Source: Candidatus Nitrospira inopinata (GTDB taxonomy: Bacteria > Nitrospirota > Nitrospiria > Nitrospirales > Nitrospiraceae). Taken from it: a stretch of 32,000 bases of DNA. This document shows, one piece after another, positions 7,623 to 20,096 of the stretch. Made by a program: the position numbers and the translations under genes. The stretch lies in assembly GCF_001458695.1 (NCBI RefSeq), contig NZ_LN885086.1, forward strand, positions 1,800,001 to 1,832,000. Direction: 5' to 3'. How positions within the stretch are numbered: the first letter of the stretch is position 1; every line of letters begins with the position of its first letter. The notes under the pieces are model-generated. The model was not told where the DNA came from and made no database searches. It saw only the letters and a list, made by a program, of their open reading frames with translations.

Positions 7623-7646
7623 ATGTTCGATCACCGGATTGATATG
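7623..7646. promoter_or_regulatory. Copy A of a conserved 24-nt motif ATGTTCGATCACCGGATTGATATG
   Basis: 21/24 identical to 9298-9321. It lies 80 nt upstream of the tonB-paralogue start codon; copy B lies 81 nt upstream of the cupredoxin-lipoprotein start codon. Confidence 0.4.
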
Positions 7647-14829: not shown

Positions 14830-15531
14830 TTATCGTCTACCTCCATGGGGCGGACTTGCCGAAGCGCTGTGCAAGCCCCTTTCCGACGCCACCCAGAGCT
14901 TTGCCACCACCATCGGGTCGAATTGCGTTCCCGCCGCGACGCGCAGAATTTTGAGCGCGATGCGGTCACGAAGGGAGCGGTCTTGCACGCCGGGGACGTG
15001 AATCGCTTCAAAGGCGTCGGCCACGGCCAGAATTCTCGCGCCGAGGGGAATGAACTCTCCGCGGACGCCGTAGGGATAGCCGCATCCATCCCACCATTCG
15101 TGGTGATGGGCGATCAGAATCGCCGCTTGCCTCAAGAAGACGAACGGTTCAAGCAAATTGGCGCCAAGCCGGGAATGGTGCTGAAGGGCGACGTACGATG
15201 AGGGATCAAGTGGTTCACATCCCTGTCTGAGCGGCTCCGGCACCATGAGGAGGCCGATGTCGTGCAGCAGGGCGGCGAGCTTCAGATCATGGAGCGCGGT
15301 CGCGTCAAGTTCGAACGCTTCTCCGATCAGGCAGGCGACGACGGCGGTCCGTTCGGCGTGACCGGCCTGCCAGGGCAGGGCGCGGTCGAGCTCTTTGCTG
15401 ACCTGCCGGACCAGAATGCTTTCGACGTCTCGGCGCGAAGCCGCCGGCAGGCGGAGACGATCGATCTTGCCCAGCAGCCGTTGAATCTTCAACACGGCCG
15501 GCTCGACGTGTGCGACAGAATCAGTGCGCAT
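14830..15531 (-). CDS. HD-GYP domain protein (predicted c-di-GMP phosphodiesterase)
   Basis: Start at ATG 15531 with AGGAGGA upstream. Motifs LHDIGLLMVPE, HHSRLGANLLEP and IAHHHEWWDGCGYPYGVRGEFIPLGARILAVADAFEAI. Confidence 0.85.
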   Translation of the reverse strand: MRTDSVAHVEPAVLKIQRLLGKIDRLRLPAASRRDVESILVRQVSKELDRALPWQAGHAERTAVVACLIGEAFELDATALHDLKLAALLHDIGLLMVPEPLRQGCEPLDPSSYVALQHHSRLGANLLEPFVFLRQAAILIAHHHEWWDGCGYPYGVRGEFIPLGARILAVADAFEAIHVPGVQDRSLRDRIALKILRVAAGTQFDPMVVAKLWVASERGLHSASASPPHGGRR

Positions 15532-15544
15532 GGCAGTCCTCCTG

Positions 15545-15583
15545 AAAAACGGAGCCCAGGACCACGGTTGTGATCCTGGGCTC
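15545..15583 (-). terminator. Intrinsic-terminator-like hairpin abutting the HD-GYP ribosome-binding site
   Basis: Perfect 10-bp stem gagcccagga (15552-15561) / tcctgggctc (15574-15583) with a 12-nt loop. On the minus strand it is followed by CGUUUUUC and then directly by AGGAGGA. Confidence 0.55.
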
Positions 15584-15638
15584 TGGGTGTGAACCTCTGG
15601 CCGCTGAAACGCGAGCGAAACCAATCAACTCACGACGG

Positions 15639-15839
15639 TCATCTCGGCATGCCTCTGATGCGGGACAAGGGAATCGTCACCAGCCGCCGGCATCGCTTAC
15701 ATTTGAGCTCGACGCCGTTTTCCACCAGACGCGCCAGGAGTTGTCCGCACAGGCAGCGAACGTCATCCGGCGCACAGGCCGATCCGGAGGTCGCCGCCGG
15801 TTTGGGACTCGACGTGCCGGGTTTCATCAGAACGTCCAT
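15639..15839 (-). CDS. Small zinc-ribbon protein resembling phage Mu Com family
   Basis: 66 aa. The core RCLCGQLLARLVENGVELKCKRCRRLV is a CxC-x15-CxxC ribbon with the Com-like LLxR context. ATG 15839 has GGAG 5 nt upstream and overlaps the receptor 3' end by 13 nt. A second ATG at 15827 overlaps the receptor stop (TGATG). Confidence 0.5.
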   Translation of the reverse strand: MDVLMKPGTSSPKPAATSGSACAPDDVRCLCGQLLARLVENGVELKCKRCRRLVTIPLSRIRGMPR

Positions 15840-18199
15840 TTCGCTCCGGCTTGCCAGAGGGCCGGCAGGCTGGGATAGATGCCGCGCGATCGGTCCACGA
15901 TGGCGTCATGGTCCAGCATGTTCTTGCCCGTGAAGAAGAAGGTCGTGTTGATTTTCTTCACGTGTTGGTTGACCGAGGCGTTGAGCATGCACCAGCCCCT
16001 CACGATGCCGCGCTGTCCGTTGGGCGTCGGGATGACCGTGTTCCGGTCATCGGCGAACTGGTCGCTGACACATTGCGTTTCCAAACGGGCGTTAAACGGA
16101 CCGACCCAGAAAGCCCGGTTGGCGTAGCCGATGCCCGCCGTAATCAAATGCTCCGGCGTGTAGGGCAGACGGTTTCCACTGACGCTGAGCGTCGTCGGTT
16201 CCCCCGGCAAGAGCGCTGCGGCGCCGAGTGAACTATTGCGCGTTCCCTTGAAATTCGCCTGGGCGACCCAGGTGTAGTTGAAATCGAACGTGACGTCTTG
16301 GTTGTCGTCTCGGCCGGTCACGGCGTCCCAGAGATCGATCTGGGTTGCCACCTCGGCGCCGCGGTGTTGCGTTCTTCCAGCACTCGTCAAGGTGGAGCCG
16401 ACCCCTCCGGCCACCGATTGGGTAATGATCTGGTTGTCGAAGTCCATCTGATAGCCGGTGATGGAGTACGCGGCCCAGTGGGTCAGATTTCCTCGCACCC
16501 CCAACTCGTAGGTCCAGCTCAACTCCGGGCCCAAATCGACGGGCCGTGCCGTGGCGAGAGCGACCGCATCGGAGATCTGAGGCGGCGCCATACCGCGGTG
16601 GGCGCCGAAGAAGAAGGTGGTGTTCTTAAACGGCGAATAGGTGATGCCGGCGCCAGGCAGCACCTCGGTAAAATTGGTCTTGCCGTAGTTGCCGTTCCCG
16701 TTGTTCGCCAGTCGGTTGGTTTGATCGTAACTGATGTGCTCGACCCGGAATCCCGGCGTCAAGGTAAAGGGGCCCAGAATCAACCGCTCTTGAGCGAAGA
16801 AGGCATAGGCATTGGTGGTGCGTTTGTTGTTTTCACCCAAACAGGTGGGCTGTCCAGGGTTGATACAGCTTGATGGCACTCCCGTTCCTGAGACCGTATT
16901 AAGCAACTGTTTACGGTCCGACTGCTCGTACATGTACCGAGCGCCGAAGTCCGCTTCGCCCTTGAGCCCGAAGAACGGAAAGGCATGAGAATAGTGGAAG
17001 CGGGGCTCGACTCCCCAAACCCAATACTCTCGTTCGTTGGTGAATCGCCGGTTGGCTGGTACGACGCCGTATGCGGTTGCCGGAATGCTGTTGCCGTTTT
17101 GGATGCCGCCGACCGGACTGCCGGTGATGTCCACTCCCTGTTGAGACTGGCGGCTCCAGTCCCGCTCCATATAATGGCCGAAGAAGTTCGTGGTTGAGGT
17201 CAAGTTGGCGGTGAACAGGTGGTTGACCGCCACGTGGTAGCCGAGCCGCATGAAGTCGAAGTGATCGTTGGTAAACGGGGTTTGCCGGTCTTCGCCACGG
17301 GTGGCCCACTCCGCTTGGGTCAGCCCTTGGTAGCCGATCGCTGAGTTTTCACGGTAGTAATTGAACTTGGCCAGGATCTGGGTCCGGTCGCTTAATTCCT
17401 GGACGGTCTTAAATGTCAAGTCATCGATCTTCGCGCGGATATTGGTGAACCGCGGTGTGTCGGTTTGCGAATGGGTGTAATCGACCAGATAGCCGCTTTT
17501 GCCCCACGTTCCGCCGTAATCGAAATGGGTGTTCAGGTAATTCAAATTGCCGCCCCACACCTGAAAATGGCCTTCCGGTTTGGCCGAAGGCATGCGCGTG
17601 ATGAGGTTGATGACGCCGCCGATGGTCTGGGGCCCGTAGAGGAGTTGCCCGCTGCCCTTCAACACCTCGATCCGATCAAAGCGGAAAATCGGAGGAAAGT
17701 AATAGGAAGAGGGATCGGCGTAAGGCATCAGCATGATGGGCACGCCGTCTTCCATGATGTGCACTTTCCGGCTGCGCGTCGGGTCCAGGCCTCGAATGCC
17801 GATATTAGGCCGGATGCCAAGACCTTCTTCGTCTCGGACATGAACACCAGGAACCTCGCGCAACGCCTCGTTGATGGTGAACCGGTGGTTCTGTTCGATG
17901 CTTTCGCTGGTCACGACTTTTCCAGAGCCTGGAATATGATCCAGTGCGGTCGGCGCCGTCCCGATGATTTCCGTCAAAGGCGCTCTGATCGGCTTTTGGT
18001 CTGACGGTGACTGCTCCCGATCTTGTGTCCCCGTGCCTTCAGACGAAGAATCGAGCGAAGCCTGCGCAACCGTCGCTTTTTGAGGCGGTAGTTCCTCGGC
18101 GGCCGTCGCAGAGGAGTCCGACAGCGCGAACGCGGCGGCAAAAAGACAGAATATAAAGATAGTTCTTATTCTCATTCTCAATAAGAAACAAAACGCCAT
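15827..18199 (-). CDS. TonB-dependent outer-membrane receptor (siderophore-receptor-like)
   Basis: Start chosen at ATG 18199 (GGAGAAGGAAG upstream), giving MAFCFLLRMRIRTIFIFCLFAAAFALS as a signal peptide. Plug motifs (NEALREVPGVHVRDEEGLGIRPNIGIRGL…VHIMEDGVPI…IEVLKGSGQLLYGPQTIGGVINLIT). Barrel ends in the terminal AKWTF. Confidence 0.9.
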   Translation of the reverse strand: MAFCFLLRMRIRTIFIFCLFAAAFALSDSSATAAEELPPQKATVAQASLDSSSEGTGTQDREQSPSDQKPIRAPLTEIIGTAPTALDHIPGSGKVVTSESIEQNHRFTINEALREVPGVHVRDEEGLGIRPNIGIRGLDPTRSRKVHIMEDGVPIMLMPYADPSSYYFPPIFRFDRIEVLKGSGQLLYGPQTIGGVINLITRMPSAKPEGHFQVWGGNLNYLNTHFDYGGTWGKSGYLVDYTHSQTDTPRFTNIRAKIDDLTFKTVQELSDRTQILAKFNYYRENSAIGYQGLTQAEWATRGEDRQTPFTNDHFDFMRLGYHVAVNHLFTANLTSTTNFFGHYMERDWSRQSQQGVDITGSPVGGIQNGNSIPATAYGVVPANRRFTNEREYWVWGVEPRFHYSHAFPFFGLKGEADFGARYMYEQSDRKQLLNTVSGTGVPSSCINPGQPTCLGENNKRTTNAYAFFAQERLILGPFTLTPGFRVEHISYDQTNRLANNGNGNYGKTNFTEVLPGAGITYSPFKNTTFFFGAHRGMAPPQISDAVALATARPVDLGPELSWTYELGVRGNLTHWAAYSITGYQMDFDNQIITQSVAGGVGSTLTSAGRTQHRGAEVATQIDLWDAVTGRDDNQDVTFDFNYTWVAQANFKGTRNSSLGAAALLPGEPTTLSVSGNRLPYTPEHLITAGIGYANRAFWVGPFNARLETQCVSDQFADDRNTVIPTPNGQRGIVRGWCMLNASVNQHVKKINTTFFFTGKNMLDHDAIVDRSRGIYPSLPALWQAGAKWTF
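18161..18179. promoter_or_regulatory. Fur-box-like sequence inside the AT-rich 5' end of the receptor gene
   Basis: The minus strand GAGAATGAGAATAAGAACT matches the Fur consensus at 12/19, including two consecutive GAgAAT hexamers. It lies within an AT-rich island at 18141-18194 that encodes the signal peptide. Confidence 0.4.
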
Positions 18200-18244
18200 C
18201 TTCCTTCTCCTTCTGCGTGGGCTCACCGGCCTCTATGGGTTAGG

Positions 18245-18276
18245 GTAAAAAAAGAAGCCTCCTCGAAGGGAGGCTG
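18245..18276 (-). terminator. Rho-independent terminator after tonB
   Basis: Stem agcctcc (18256-18262) / ggaggct (18269-18275). On the minus strand it is followed by UCUUUUUUUACCC (the plus-strand A-run at 18247-18253). Confidence 0.7.
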
Positions 18277-18334
18277 CCAGACGAATCTGGGATGAGACTG
18301 TGAACTGAGCGACCGACGACATCTTCATGGACCT

Positions 18335-19213
18335 CTATCGGAGCGAATAACTGATCGGCATGAGAATGGCCACCTGAGGCTTTCCCAGAGGCTGTTCGAG
18401 TTTCAAAGGCGATGCTTTTCGCAAAGTCTCCATCGCGTCGTTGTCGAGGATGGACCGCCCCGAGCTTTCTTGCACGTCGACCATAATGACCTGTCCGTCG
18501 TCTCTGATCACGGCCCGGAGCACGACCTTGCCTTCCCAATGGTTGATGCGGGCCAAATGAGGGTAGCTCTTCAGTTCGTTGATCCGCCCCAACAGCGCCT
18601 TCATGAGCCACGCATAATCGGCCTTGGCTGCAACGGGTGCATGTGAGGGGGCCTTCGCGACAGCGGCCTCGACGGGCTTGGTCTCCTGAGCAACAGAGGC
18701 GACGGCAGGGTGGGGTTCCGTCACAACCTGCCGTGGGGGCTCCGGTGTTATGCCCGGCGCCGTCTGAATCGGCGGCTCTTCTTGAACGGCCGTGTCTTGC
18801 ACCGGCGTCGGCTCAACGGTCTCGTGGATCTCCTCCTGGGGCGGGACCGTCTTCTCAAAAACCATCGAAGCCGTCTGCGAGACCGTCTGATCGACGGGCA
18901 TGATCTCGGGAACAGGCCGAACCGTTCGAACTTCTTGGCGGTGGAGAACTTCACGTTGAACCGGTTTGGCGACCGGCTCCGGTGGTTGAGGCGGAGGCGT
19001 GGTTTCCGGGAGAGGGTCCGACAAGGGGGAAATTTCCGGCGATTCCACCATCGCAACATTCCATTGAAACGGTTCCGCCTCCATGGACGGAGACAAGCCC
19101 GACATCAAGGCCATCGCGCCCGCGCCGAAAATGCCGTGGACGAGTAGAGACCAGGCCCAACCCCGTTGGTGCATGCGCGCGTGGTCTTGTGAAGCGGCCG
19201 CGAGCAGGGTCAT
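18335..19213 (-). CDS. tonB: TonB energy transducer
   Basis: TM segment with S-x3-H (WSLLVHGIFGAGAMAL). Pro/Glu-rich linker. C-terminal domain YPHLARINHWEGKVVLRAVIRDDGQVIMVDVQESSGRSILDNDAMETLRKASPL. The start overlaps the exbD stop by 4 bp. Confidence 0.85.
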   Translation of the reverse strand: MTLLAAASQDHARMHQRGWAWSLLVHGIFGAGAMALMSGLSPSMEAEPFQWNVAMVESPEISPLSDPLPETTPPPQPPEPVAKPVQREVLHRQEVRTVRPVPEIMPVDQTVSQTASMVFEKTVPPQEEIHETVEPTPVQDTAVQEEPPIQTAPGITPEPPRQVVTEPHPAVASVAQETKPVEAAVAKAPSHAPVAAKADYAWLMKALLGRINELKSYPHLARINHWEGKVVLRAVIRDDGQVIMVDVQESSGRSILDNDAMETLRKASPLKLEQPLGKPQVAILMPISYSLR

Positions 19214-19584
19214 GACCGCACCACCTCCAGACTCACCTGAGAAAATCCCAAGCCGCGCACTTCGTCAACGACCTGAACGAACCGCTCCAGCATCGTTACT
19301 TTGTCGGCGCGGACGACCACGATCGATTCCCGCGGCTGCGAGGCGAGCACGGCGCGGAGCCCGTTCTCGGGGACGGCCGAATCATTGAGATAAAGCTGCC
19401 CCTCCGCCGTCAGGGTGATGACGACCGGGACGTCCTTGCGATCGCTGGCTTCGGATGCCTTGGCCAAGTCGACCGGAATCTGTCCCGTGGTGATGAAGGT
19501 CGCCGTCGTCAACACGATGACCAACAGCACCAGCATTACGTCAACCAGGGGAATGACGTTGATTTGATTCAGTTCATGATTCAT
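19210..19584 (-). CDS. exbD: ExbD/TolR biopolymer transport protein
   Basis: 124 aa. INVIPLVDVMLVLLVIVL TM segment followed by a periplasmic domain (VITLTAEGQLYLND…VVVRADK). Overlaps the exbB 3' end. Confidence 0.9.
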   Translation of the reverse strand: MNHELNQINVIPLVDVMLVLLVIVLTTATFITTGQIPVDLAKASEASDRKDVPVVITLTAEGQLYLNDSAVPENGLRAVLASQPRESIVVVRADKVTMLERFVQVVDEVRGLGFSQVSLEVVRS

Positions 19585-20005
19585 GGGGATGACGGATTTT
19601 GTATTCGGTCACCAGTTCGGCGACACGTCGTCGGAGGGCGTTATTCAGGACGACGCAGGGGATTGCCACCAAGAGTCCGACCGCCGTCGCTTTGAGGGCC
19701 AAACTTAATCCCACCATAATGGAACTGACGGCGATCGTCTTGGAGGTTCCCATGGTATGGAACGTCAACATAATGCCCAAGACCGTCCCCAACAGGCCGA
19801 TATAGGGCGCGTTGGCCGCCACGGTCCCGATGATCACCAACCGTTTGGTCAAGGCGATTTCAAACAATTGTTGGTTCGGATAGAGCGAGGGATCGATCCG
19901 CCGGTAAAACTGCCACCGCTCGATGGCCACGGCCACGGCCCACACGCTGAGCGCCAGCAACAGGCCGATGATGCCGTAGTCGATGATGTCTTTTAACGCT
20001 TCCAT
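19574..20005 (-). CDS. exbB: ExbB/MotA/TolQ proton-channel protein (short form)
   Basis: 143 aa with three TM segments and the conserved APYIGLLGTVLGIMLTF and LALKATAVGLLVAIP motifs. Confidence 0.9.
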   Translation of the reverse strand: MEALKDIIDYGIIGLLLALSVWAVAVAIERWQFYRRIDPSLYPNQQLFEIALTKRLVIIGTVAANAPYIGLLGTVLGIMLTFHTMGTSKTIAVSSIMVGLSLALKATAVGLLVAIPCVVLNNALRRRVAELVTEYKIRHPHES

Positions 20006-20046
20006 GCTGAATCCCGCGGCTGAGTCGTCGCACCTGATACGTTATT

Positions 20047-20065
20047 GATAATGCTTCTCAATACC
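20047..20065. promoter_or_regulatory. Fur-box-like operator upstream of exbB
   Basis: gataatgcttctcaatacc matches GATAATGATAATCATTATC at 14/19, with the first 7 positions perfect. It lies 42 nt upstream of ATG 20005. Confidence 0.55.
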
Positions 20066-20096
20066 ACCCGTTGTCCGACTCTGTCAATGGAAAAAT

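Follow-up and report, generated by a model that had tools for sequence, protein, structure and literature searches.

Analysis of a 32,000-nt stretch of the genome of Candidatus Nitrospira inopinata (GCF_001458695.1, contig NZ_LN885086.1, positions 1,800,001-1,832,000; hereafter the window, in whose coordinates all positions are given) indicated that a small gene next to a TonB-dependent receptor gene encodes a cellular homologue of the phage Mu protein Com, and that the hairpin between this gene and a stand-alone HD-GYP phosphodiesterase gene is one copy of a conserved 60-nt RNA element which recurs after the small genes of this family, whatever gene follows. The order on the minus strand is exbB-like, exbD, tonB, TonB-dependent receptor, small open reading frame (ORF), hairpin, HD-GYP and an AraC gene. 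Comparison of these sequences with those of relatives suggests that the small Com-like protein probably binds the element and so relieves termination or translational blocking in iron-uptake clusters. The small ORF and the hairpin had been singled out in a preliminary description made from the window alone.

The small ORF (15839..15639, minus strand, 66 aa) overlaps the end of the receptor gene by 13 nt, in agreement with the earlier statement that it starts inside the last receptor codons. A second in-frame ATG at 15827 has one base in common with the receptor UGA, in a UGAUG stop/start arrangement, and would give a protein of 62 aa; this is the most likely product, because the ATG at 15827 is kept as ATG in close relatives while the start equivalent to 15839 is GTG there. 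The small gene is accordingly placed at 15639..15827, with 15839 as the alternative start. The cysteine pattern C-x-C-x15-C-x-x-C proposed previously was confirmed, and in translated searches 29 of the 41 related genomes proved to have the gene, frequently as two or three copies; the window genome carries one copy of the gene and one of the RNA element. Homologues were present in 483 stretches of GTDB species genomes, and 79 of the best 80 of these were labelled Nitrospira or other Nitrospirota, or belonged to uncultured or mislabelled assemblies, the clear outlier being one Myxococcota metagenome-assembled genome (MAG). A profile search yielded at least 2123 protein clusters of the family.

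Substitutions relative to close relatives fall mostly at third codon positions, and in one relative 19 nucleotide changes in the core led to only 4 amino acid changes. Ten residues are invariant (R24, C25, C27, G28, L30, A32, K42, C43, R45 and C46), giving the signature R-C-x-C-G-x-L-x-A ... K-C-x-R-C-x-R, and the four cysteines did not vary in alignments of 35 and of 46 sequences. The AlphaFold2 (AF2) model built from the 46 sequences showed a confident three-strand core, with a predicted local distance difference test score (pLDDT) of about 90 over residues 30-55, as expected for a zinc ribbon. Judged by this conservation, the small ORF is a real gene.

Scans of the window protein alone gave no Com match in Pfam or NCBIfam and only marginal matches in PHROG, and the relation to Com is therefore visible only by family-wide and profile-profile searches. 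These searches bore out the resemblance to Com noticed earlier: all 35 family members (35/35) matched the PHROG Com families phrog_6417 and phrog_13819 with a best E-value of 7e-6, and hhalign of the family profile gave a probability of 92.3% against Mu Com and of 97.2% (E 3.2e-11) against an alignment of 17 Com proteins. The alignment pairs all four cysteines (Cys6, Cys9, Cys26 and Cys29 of Com) and the preceding arginine, together with the L-L/I-A/F-K/R and I-E-I/L-K-C-x-R-C-K/R-R stretches, with one-residue gaps required in the first knuckle and the loop. Relatives are entered as 'FluMu protein Com' in some public records. On the profile evidence the small protein is a divergent cellular homologue of Com lying below Pfam's own threshold, and the relation is one of homology, not a mere look-alike. 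The two best profile matches (P0010 and P0011) are 127-129 aa long, double the usual length, and may represent tandem Com-like domains or fused ORF calls.

The hairpin starts 55 nt past the stop codon of the small gene and lies at 15583-15552. This distance and position had been given correctly in the preliminary description, but the stem, there put at 10 bp, was found to be of 14 bp, consisting of 10 perfect basal pairs, one U-G pair and three more pairs, nine of the pairs being G-C, with the loop AACC. It is followed by CG, by U5 (15549-15545), by C and by the Shine-Dalgarno sequence AGGAGGA (15543-15537), which stands 5 nt before the HD-GYP ATG at 15531; the succession of five U, AGGAGGA and ATG had been noted. 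The stem-loop with its U-tract (15545..15583, minus strand) is designated P2. Directly upstream, on the same strand, are a 5' box GGCCAGAGG (15594..15602) which contains CC-A-GAG and whose columns in alignment A2 are invariant or nearly so, a short hairpin P1 of the form GGU-ucac-ACC (15586..15595), and a CC-CA-GAG junction (15581..15587), invariant in alignment A2, which covers the 3' side of P1 together with the first three P2 pairs. The consensus of the element is a GGCCAG(A/C)GG 5' box, a P1 of 3-4 bp, (C)AGAG, and a P2 that opens with GAGCCC or GAGUCC. Copies in which, as in the window, P2 forms a closed stem and a U-tract comes next are referred to as type A, and those with a porin gene downstream as type B/C.

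Alignment of the type A copies (A2, 38 sequences) revealed that P2 is 95% paired with double changes in 8 of its 14 pairs, values of pairing and covariation which were reached by none of 500 shuffles, and the model-based alignment A4 (138 distinct sequences) gave a similar picture with double changes in 9 of the 14; covariation of the stem, which the preliminary description had proposed as a check, is thus present. The six pairs of the P2 foot GAGCCC/GGGCUC are essentially invariant, four of them never varying and the outermost being G-C or G-U, and such an invariant base is unexpected for a plain terminator. P1 also covaries among the 138 sequences (UA to CG in 19, GC to AU in 8) and occurs in the forms GGU/ACC, GGC/GCC, GGA/UCC, GGAC/GUCC and GGAU/AUCC. 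Of the 93 distinct copies in which P2 closes, every one shows 4 or more U among the 9 nt that follow the stem, and the median P2 energy of these copies is -24.5 kcal/mol. In type B/C the 3' arm of P2 lies in porin codons 8-11, so that the helix encloses the porin Shine-Dalgarno sequence and AUG; this long-range P2 was recovered de novo by RNAalifold and carries two compensatory pairs (GAG/CUC versus AAC/GUU). A search by eye for a conserved antiterminator helix competing with P2 gave none that was convincing. In five loci of the subfamily IRC(A/T)CGQLIARWT... (L021, L085, L102, L113 and L116), the small gene is followed by an element core GGCCAGAGGAC-AUKA-GUCCAGAGCCC that has neither a closed P2 nor a U-tract, and another element, complete, is located just upstream of that gene.

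The RNA target of the Com zinc finger has been defined by systematic evolution of ligands through exponential enrichment (SELEX), electrophoretic mobility shift assays (EMSA) and footprinting by selective 2'-hydroxyl acylation analysed by primer extension (SHAPE) (PMC6483171). Its core is GAG(N)2CC, in the bipartite form GAGNNCC(N)2-3GAGNNCC, and Com recognises CC(N)2-3GAG placed in the six-residue loop of a hairpin whose 3-4 bp stem has a closing C-G pair; the site adjoins a translation-inhibition structure, and Com activates by melting this adjacent inhibitory helix (PMC6483171). The porin-type P1 of relatives, GAC-CAUCGA-GUC, has a C-G-closed six-residue loop with CC(N)3GAG and is part of GAG-A-CC-AUC-GAG-U-CC, and several loci carry the exact published motif, for instance GAGGACC-CC-GAGUCCC. 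Of 110 distinct regions that lie downstream of small genes, 12 contained the strict bipartite motif (mean in shuffles 0.04, maximum 1) and 43 the relaxed motif (mean in shuffles 0.3, maximum 4). By the published definition (PMC6483171) the window junction CC-CA-GAG is a Com-type CC(N)2GAG.

The receptor leader of the window contains a second short hairpin of Com-box type, AGAGGCC-GGU-GAGCCC (18219..18234, minus strand; GGC/GCC stem, CC(N)3GAG across the loop), which is situated between the terminator that follows tonB and the receptor Shine-Dalgarno sequence, immediately upstream of the latter. Receptor leaders of relatives keep it as AGAGGCC(A/G)UUAGAGCCC. It is not statistically distinctive in one genome alone, and folding of the receptor leader gave no significant structure (z -0.49); it is a possible second target site in the window. 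Two repeated motifs of the window, at 7623 and 9298, are unrelated to the element.

A search of the 3.3-Mb genome with covariance model R1 gave exactly one site, the window hairpin, at 72.6 bits (E-values of the covariance models are rough, the calibration having been shortened), while relatives carry 1-6 copies per genome. The element precedes HD-GYP genes throughout Nitrospira and is also found before receptor, exbB and FecI-type genes. In a regular-expression tabulation of 113 type A core sites the upstream gene was the small gene (56) or the gene of a membrane protein, F8 (35), and the downstream gene was HD-GYP (49) or a receptor (10), 49 of the 113 sites lying between the small gene or F8 and HD-GYP. 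In HD-GYP leaders the element begins 22-42 nt after the preceding F8 ORF ends; in 35 of 43 cases the stem is followed within 25 nt by a Shine-Dalgarno-like sequence. Because copies stand directly before HD-GYP even where the small gene is remote, 3.4 kb upstream, the window hairpin is the orthologue of a conserved HD-GYP leader, which the small gene came to adjoin in this clade, whose order is receptor, small gene, HD-GYP. The preliminary description is to be corrected on two points: the element is part of the HD-GYP leader, and the small gene usually heads a porin operon.

Among the 41 genomes both gene and element occur in 25, the gene only in 4, the element only in 2 and neither in 10, a descriptive count, the genomes being kin. 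The four genomes with the gene only belong to more distant genera, and at least three of them (G028, G029 and G032) carry the type C form, which R1 does not score. In these genomes 44 of the 58 element copies have a small gene at a distance of less than 10 kb, and the remaining ones sit in other iron clusters with FecI/FecR, PepSY_TM (reductase), receptor or ExbBD-TonB genes. The small gene itself is nearly always beside ExbB/ExbD/TonB genes. The commonest layout begins with a ferric-type ABC transporter, ExbB, ExbD and TonB, a divergent ApbE gene, and a TTGACA promoter with a Fur-box-like operator, and continues with the small gene, a porin O/P-like gene, a lipoprotein, an FMN-binding protein, membrane protein F8, HD-GYP and a protein with two CxxCH motifs. 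Elsewhere the small gene heads PepSY_TM/receptor operons beside FecI/FecR genes.

Inspection of individual loci (L016, L025, L132 and many others) showed the porin O/P-like/lipoprotein/FMN_bind/membrane protein/HD-GYP/two-CxxCH operon conserved beside the divergent ApbE flavin-transferase gene, and the whole looks like an outer-membrane and periplasmic uptake system based on flavin-dependent ferric reduction; the window genome lacks the block at this locus. Locus L132, from an assembly labelled Petrachloros mirabilis, is a typical Nitrospira-type iron locus with a small gene, and its contig is probably contamination or mis-binning in a cyanobacterial assembly. In the Myxococcota MAG (L092) the homologue has 75% identity over the ribbon core and adjoins an RsmB-like gene and a gene for a 1215-aa Ig-repeat protein, with neither iron genes nor the element nearby. 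Since this homologue sits in an unrelated context, the link to iron is specific to Nitrospirota in the data seen.

Analysis of the region upstream of the exbB-like gene revealed the promoter-like hexamer TTGACA and, after 17 nt, the near-palindromic Fur-box-like operator ATTGAGAAGCATTATCAAT (20041..20086, minus strand), which overlaps the promoter, and the porin-type loci of relatives have the same Fur-like box, GATATTAATAATCGTTCTCAATTTC, after TTGACA upstream of the small gene. The preliminary description had placed the small ORF on a Fur-controlled transcript. The operator upstream of exbB is in line with this, but an intrinsic terminator-like hairpin (AGCCUCC...GGAGGCU followed by U7; 18256..18275, minus strand) separates tonB from the receptor, so that for the receptor/small-gene transcript Fur control is what we infer. 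A simple scan of 15300-18400 found no sigma-70-like promoter between the receptor and HD-GYP genes, where an independent HD-GYP promoter had been named as part of an alternative. As no promoter-like site was found between the two genes, HD-GYP expression must pass through the terminator. Within the first 15 or so receptor codons there is an AT-rich Fur-box-like sequence, UUAUUGAGAAUGAGAAUAAGAAC (18160-18182, minus strand), which is conserved at the DNA level among receptor orthologues with diverged flanks.

From these data we infer binding, its activating direction and control by iron, in the following order of events. Iron starvation would derepress the cluster through the Fur-box-like operators, and the small protein would be made by translational coupling to the receptor and would bind the 5' box, P1 and the junction. 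Binding would, in type A, strip the foot pairs of the terminator that adjoin the U-tract, so that P2 is prevented or weakened and transcription continues into HD-GYP. In type B/C, the form of most relatives, binding would open the helix over the porin start and activate translation, as Com does at mom. The Fur-like operators with the protein and its element would then constitute a feed-forward step in the iron-starvation response. P2 of the window ends 21 nt before the HD-GYP AUG, and a distance of 21 nt is outside the usual ribosome footprint; for this reason the action in the window is expected to be on termination rather than on initiation. The presence of a conserved HD-GYP gene in the cluster supports the link between iron uptake and the turnover of cyclic di-GMP (c-di-GMP) suggested in the preliminary description, whose model was favoured by the computational results on each part that they could address.

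Several observations weigh against this proposal. With respect to the protein, its first knuckle is CxC instead of the CxxC of Com, one residue shorter; only 10 of the 35 members match PF10122 at E up to 10, with a best score of 21.7 bits against a gathering score of 22.9, and the window protein does not match at all, while Mu Com itself scores 36.8 bits; a Foldseek search of BFVD with the AF2 model had no hit below E 0.49, and a profile search among PDB sequences brought up nothing relevant. With respect to the RNA, the window element fits the Mu Com site only partly: its P1 loop, UCAC, is without GAG, the Com-type CC-CA-GAG sits at the P1/P2 junction with its GAG forming the first three pairs of the terminator stem, and the copy in the 5' box, CC-A-GAG, has a spacing of N1. 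The short Com motif is unenriched genome-wide, with 147 matches versus 112 in the reversed-sequence control, as is the P1 core in a regular-expression scan with the same type of control; short Com-motif sites are meaningful only where their position is conserved. With respect to distribution, another factor could act on those elements that precede HD-GYP far from a small gene, two genomes have the element only, namely G014, which is cut at a contig edge within the operon, and G034, which is complete, and kinship among the compared genomes means that the covariation and co-occurrence counts overstate independence.

The hairpin could be a plain intrinsic terminator of the receptor/small-gene unit, or a stabiliser of the mRNA 3' end, with HD-GYP expressed by unregulated leaky read-through and the Com-like protein regulating other targets (e.g. 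only the porin operon elsewhere) or binding DNA. The canonical stem and U-tract of all 93 copies (93/93), the call of the window hairpin as a terminator by a terminator scan and the GAG-less P1 loop of the window are in keeping with this explanation, as is, for binding to DNA, the name 'Com family DNA-binding transcriptional regulator' given to relatives by NCBI. A plain terminator, however, needs no invariant stem base, conserved 5' box or covarying upstream hairpin across the whole order; a few nucleotides separate the hairpin from the Shine-Dalgarno sequence of the next gene, which is co-oriented, and leave no space for a promoter; and its core is common to elements that enclose the porin start. 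We consider this explanation unlikely.

A further explanation is that the element is sensed by another agent, be it a ligand acting on a compact riboswitch (e.g. an iron species or c-di-GMP), a small RNA or another protein, while the Cys4 protein is a metal-binding accessory of TonB uptake, for example a rubredoxin- or Bfd-like electron or metal carrier. It would accommodate the elements with distant small genes and the complete genome in which an element but no small gene was detected; Cys4 knuckles can bind iron, and the CxC with which the motif opens is reminiscent of Bfd. Against a carrier, neither the window protein nor its 35 relatives matched the Fer2_BFD (Bfd) or hemP families at E up to 10, and the homology is to Com. 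Against a ligand, the conserved unpaired part is only about 25 nt long and the P1 loops vary freely, which fits a binding pocket poorly, and no family of Rfam 15, riboswitches included, matched the element, the only hits being at chance level (E 3-6) and far below gathering scores. The sequence furthermore matches the experimentally defined Com target, and the element is shared by the receptor, exbB and FecI-type genes. We regard this explanation as decidedly improbable. That the protein binds the element but acts negatively, stabilising P1/P2 and enforcing termination or start-site occlusion as an autoregulatory brake on the iron-starvation response, appears very improbable: geometry alone leaves the sign of the effect unfixed and a gene upstream of its own target in the same transcript is a layout also of autoregulatory repressors, yet activation, through melting of the inhibitory helix next to its site, is how the one characterised relative acts (PMC6483171), and CC(N)2GAG overlaps the P2 foot, where its occupancy as a single strand is incompatible with a full terminator stem.

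Returning to relief of termination or translational blocking by the Com-like protein, an extension of this proposal would make the Cys4 site with its unusual CxC knuckle a metal sensor and not a structural zinc site. RNA binding would then depend on occupancy by Fe (or Zn), and the protein, responding to metal at the post-transcriptional level, would serve as antiterminator and translational activator of a multi-site regulon of its own (porin, receptor, ExbB, FecI and HD-GYP leaders), by which c-di-GMP degradation in nitrifiers would be gated by iron in a second layer of regulation beneath Fur. This extension is speculative, and we give it little credence at present.

The remaining genes of the locus, all on the minus strand, were assigned as follows. 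The exbB-like (19574-20005), exbD (19210-19584) and tonB (18335-19213) genes form a block at 18335..20005, identified by a Pfam TonB_C match and by synteny, the Pfam names of ExbB and ExbD coming from the orthologous locus. The TonB-dependent receptor gene (15827..18199) matched Pfam Plug and TonB_dep_Rec_b-barrel and the siderophore/FecA-like models of NCBIfam; its likely start is the ATG at 18199 following GGAGAAGGAAG, and the longest ORF begins at 18226. The HD-GYP gene with its Shine-Dalgarno sequence occupies 14830..15543, and its product matched Pfam HD_5 (E 4.9e-33) and has the HHExxDGxGYP motif, present as HHHEWWDGCGYPYG in the translation.

Com has so far been a one-gene curiosity of phage Mu, and a family of at least 2123 protein clusters together with a recognisable cis-element makes its role testable. 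The two classes of element suggest that one zinc-ribbon/RNA module may drive two expression platforms, a terminator and start-site occlusion. In soils, waters and treatment plants Nitrospira have a key role as nitrite oxidisers and comammox organisms, with iron as a main limiting cofactor. The proposal predicts that their response to iron starvation has a post-transcriptional layer and that a conserved stand-alone HD-GYP enzyme wires iron uptake to c-di-GMP turnover, with consequences for biofilm behaviour. No paper that deals with Com-like proteins of Nitrospira or of iron uptake came up in a search of the literature, and none that deals with this RNA element or with a terminator-type Com platform.

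Among known systems, the small protein resembles HemP/HmuP, a protein of about 60 aa which is encoded beside a TonB-dependent receptor gene and on which the expression of uptake genes depends. A Cys4 ribbon is absent from HemP, and no sequence relation between the two was found, Pfam hemP giving no match. The proposed action in type A resembles that of protein-dependent attenuators such as BglG/SacY-RAT, ANTAR/EutV, HutP, PyrR and TRAP, in which an RNA-binding protein decides read-through by way of a short, structured or repeated motif overlapping the 5' arm of an intrinsic terminator in the operon. The folds of these proteins are unrelated to the Com ribbon, and we know of no zinc-ribbon antiterminator of this kind; unlike in these attenuators, the same motif is here also used with a translational platform.

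Cellular com-like genes have been described in Pseudomonas, where they precede llpA bacteriocin, tailocin cargo/lysis and levansucrase genes and their role 'remains to be explored' (PMC6240691). Like the Nitrospira genes, they are short genes of PF10122 type outside a Mu prophage and stand directly before one gene (PMC6240691). They differ from the Nitrospira genes in being canonical PF10122 members in phage-derived or secreted-enzyme contexts, and neither a conserved RNA element nor a terminator platform nor any link to metal uptake was described for them.

The closest parallel is Com/mom of phage Mu itself. In both systems the protein is about 60 aa long and carries an N-terminal Cys4 zinc ribbon, profile-profile comparison showing the two to be homologous, and the gene is located immediately 5' of its presumed target. 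The presumed target is a GAG/CC-rich hairpin of 3-4 bp which abuts an inhibitory helix, although the window element matches the Mu Com site only partly; in the porin-type loci the start region of the following gene is contained in this helix, as it is in mom. Unlike Mu Com, the Nitrospira gene is chromosomal, is found in the iron-uptake clusters of Nitrospirales and not in a phage, has a CxC first knuckle and an inter-knuckle loop one residue shorter, falls below the Pfam threshold and is accompanied by several target copies per genome (1-6). A further difference from Mu is that the inhibitory helix before the HD-GYP gene of the window, and before all HD-GYP genes, is an intrinsic terminator, and the action predicted there is antitermination instead of activated translation.

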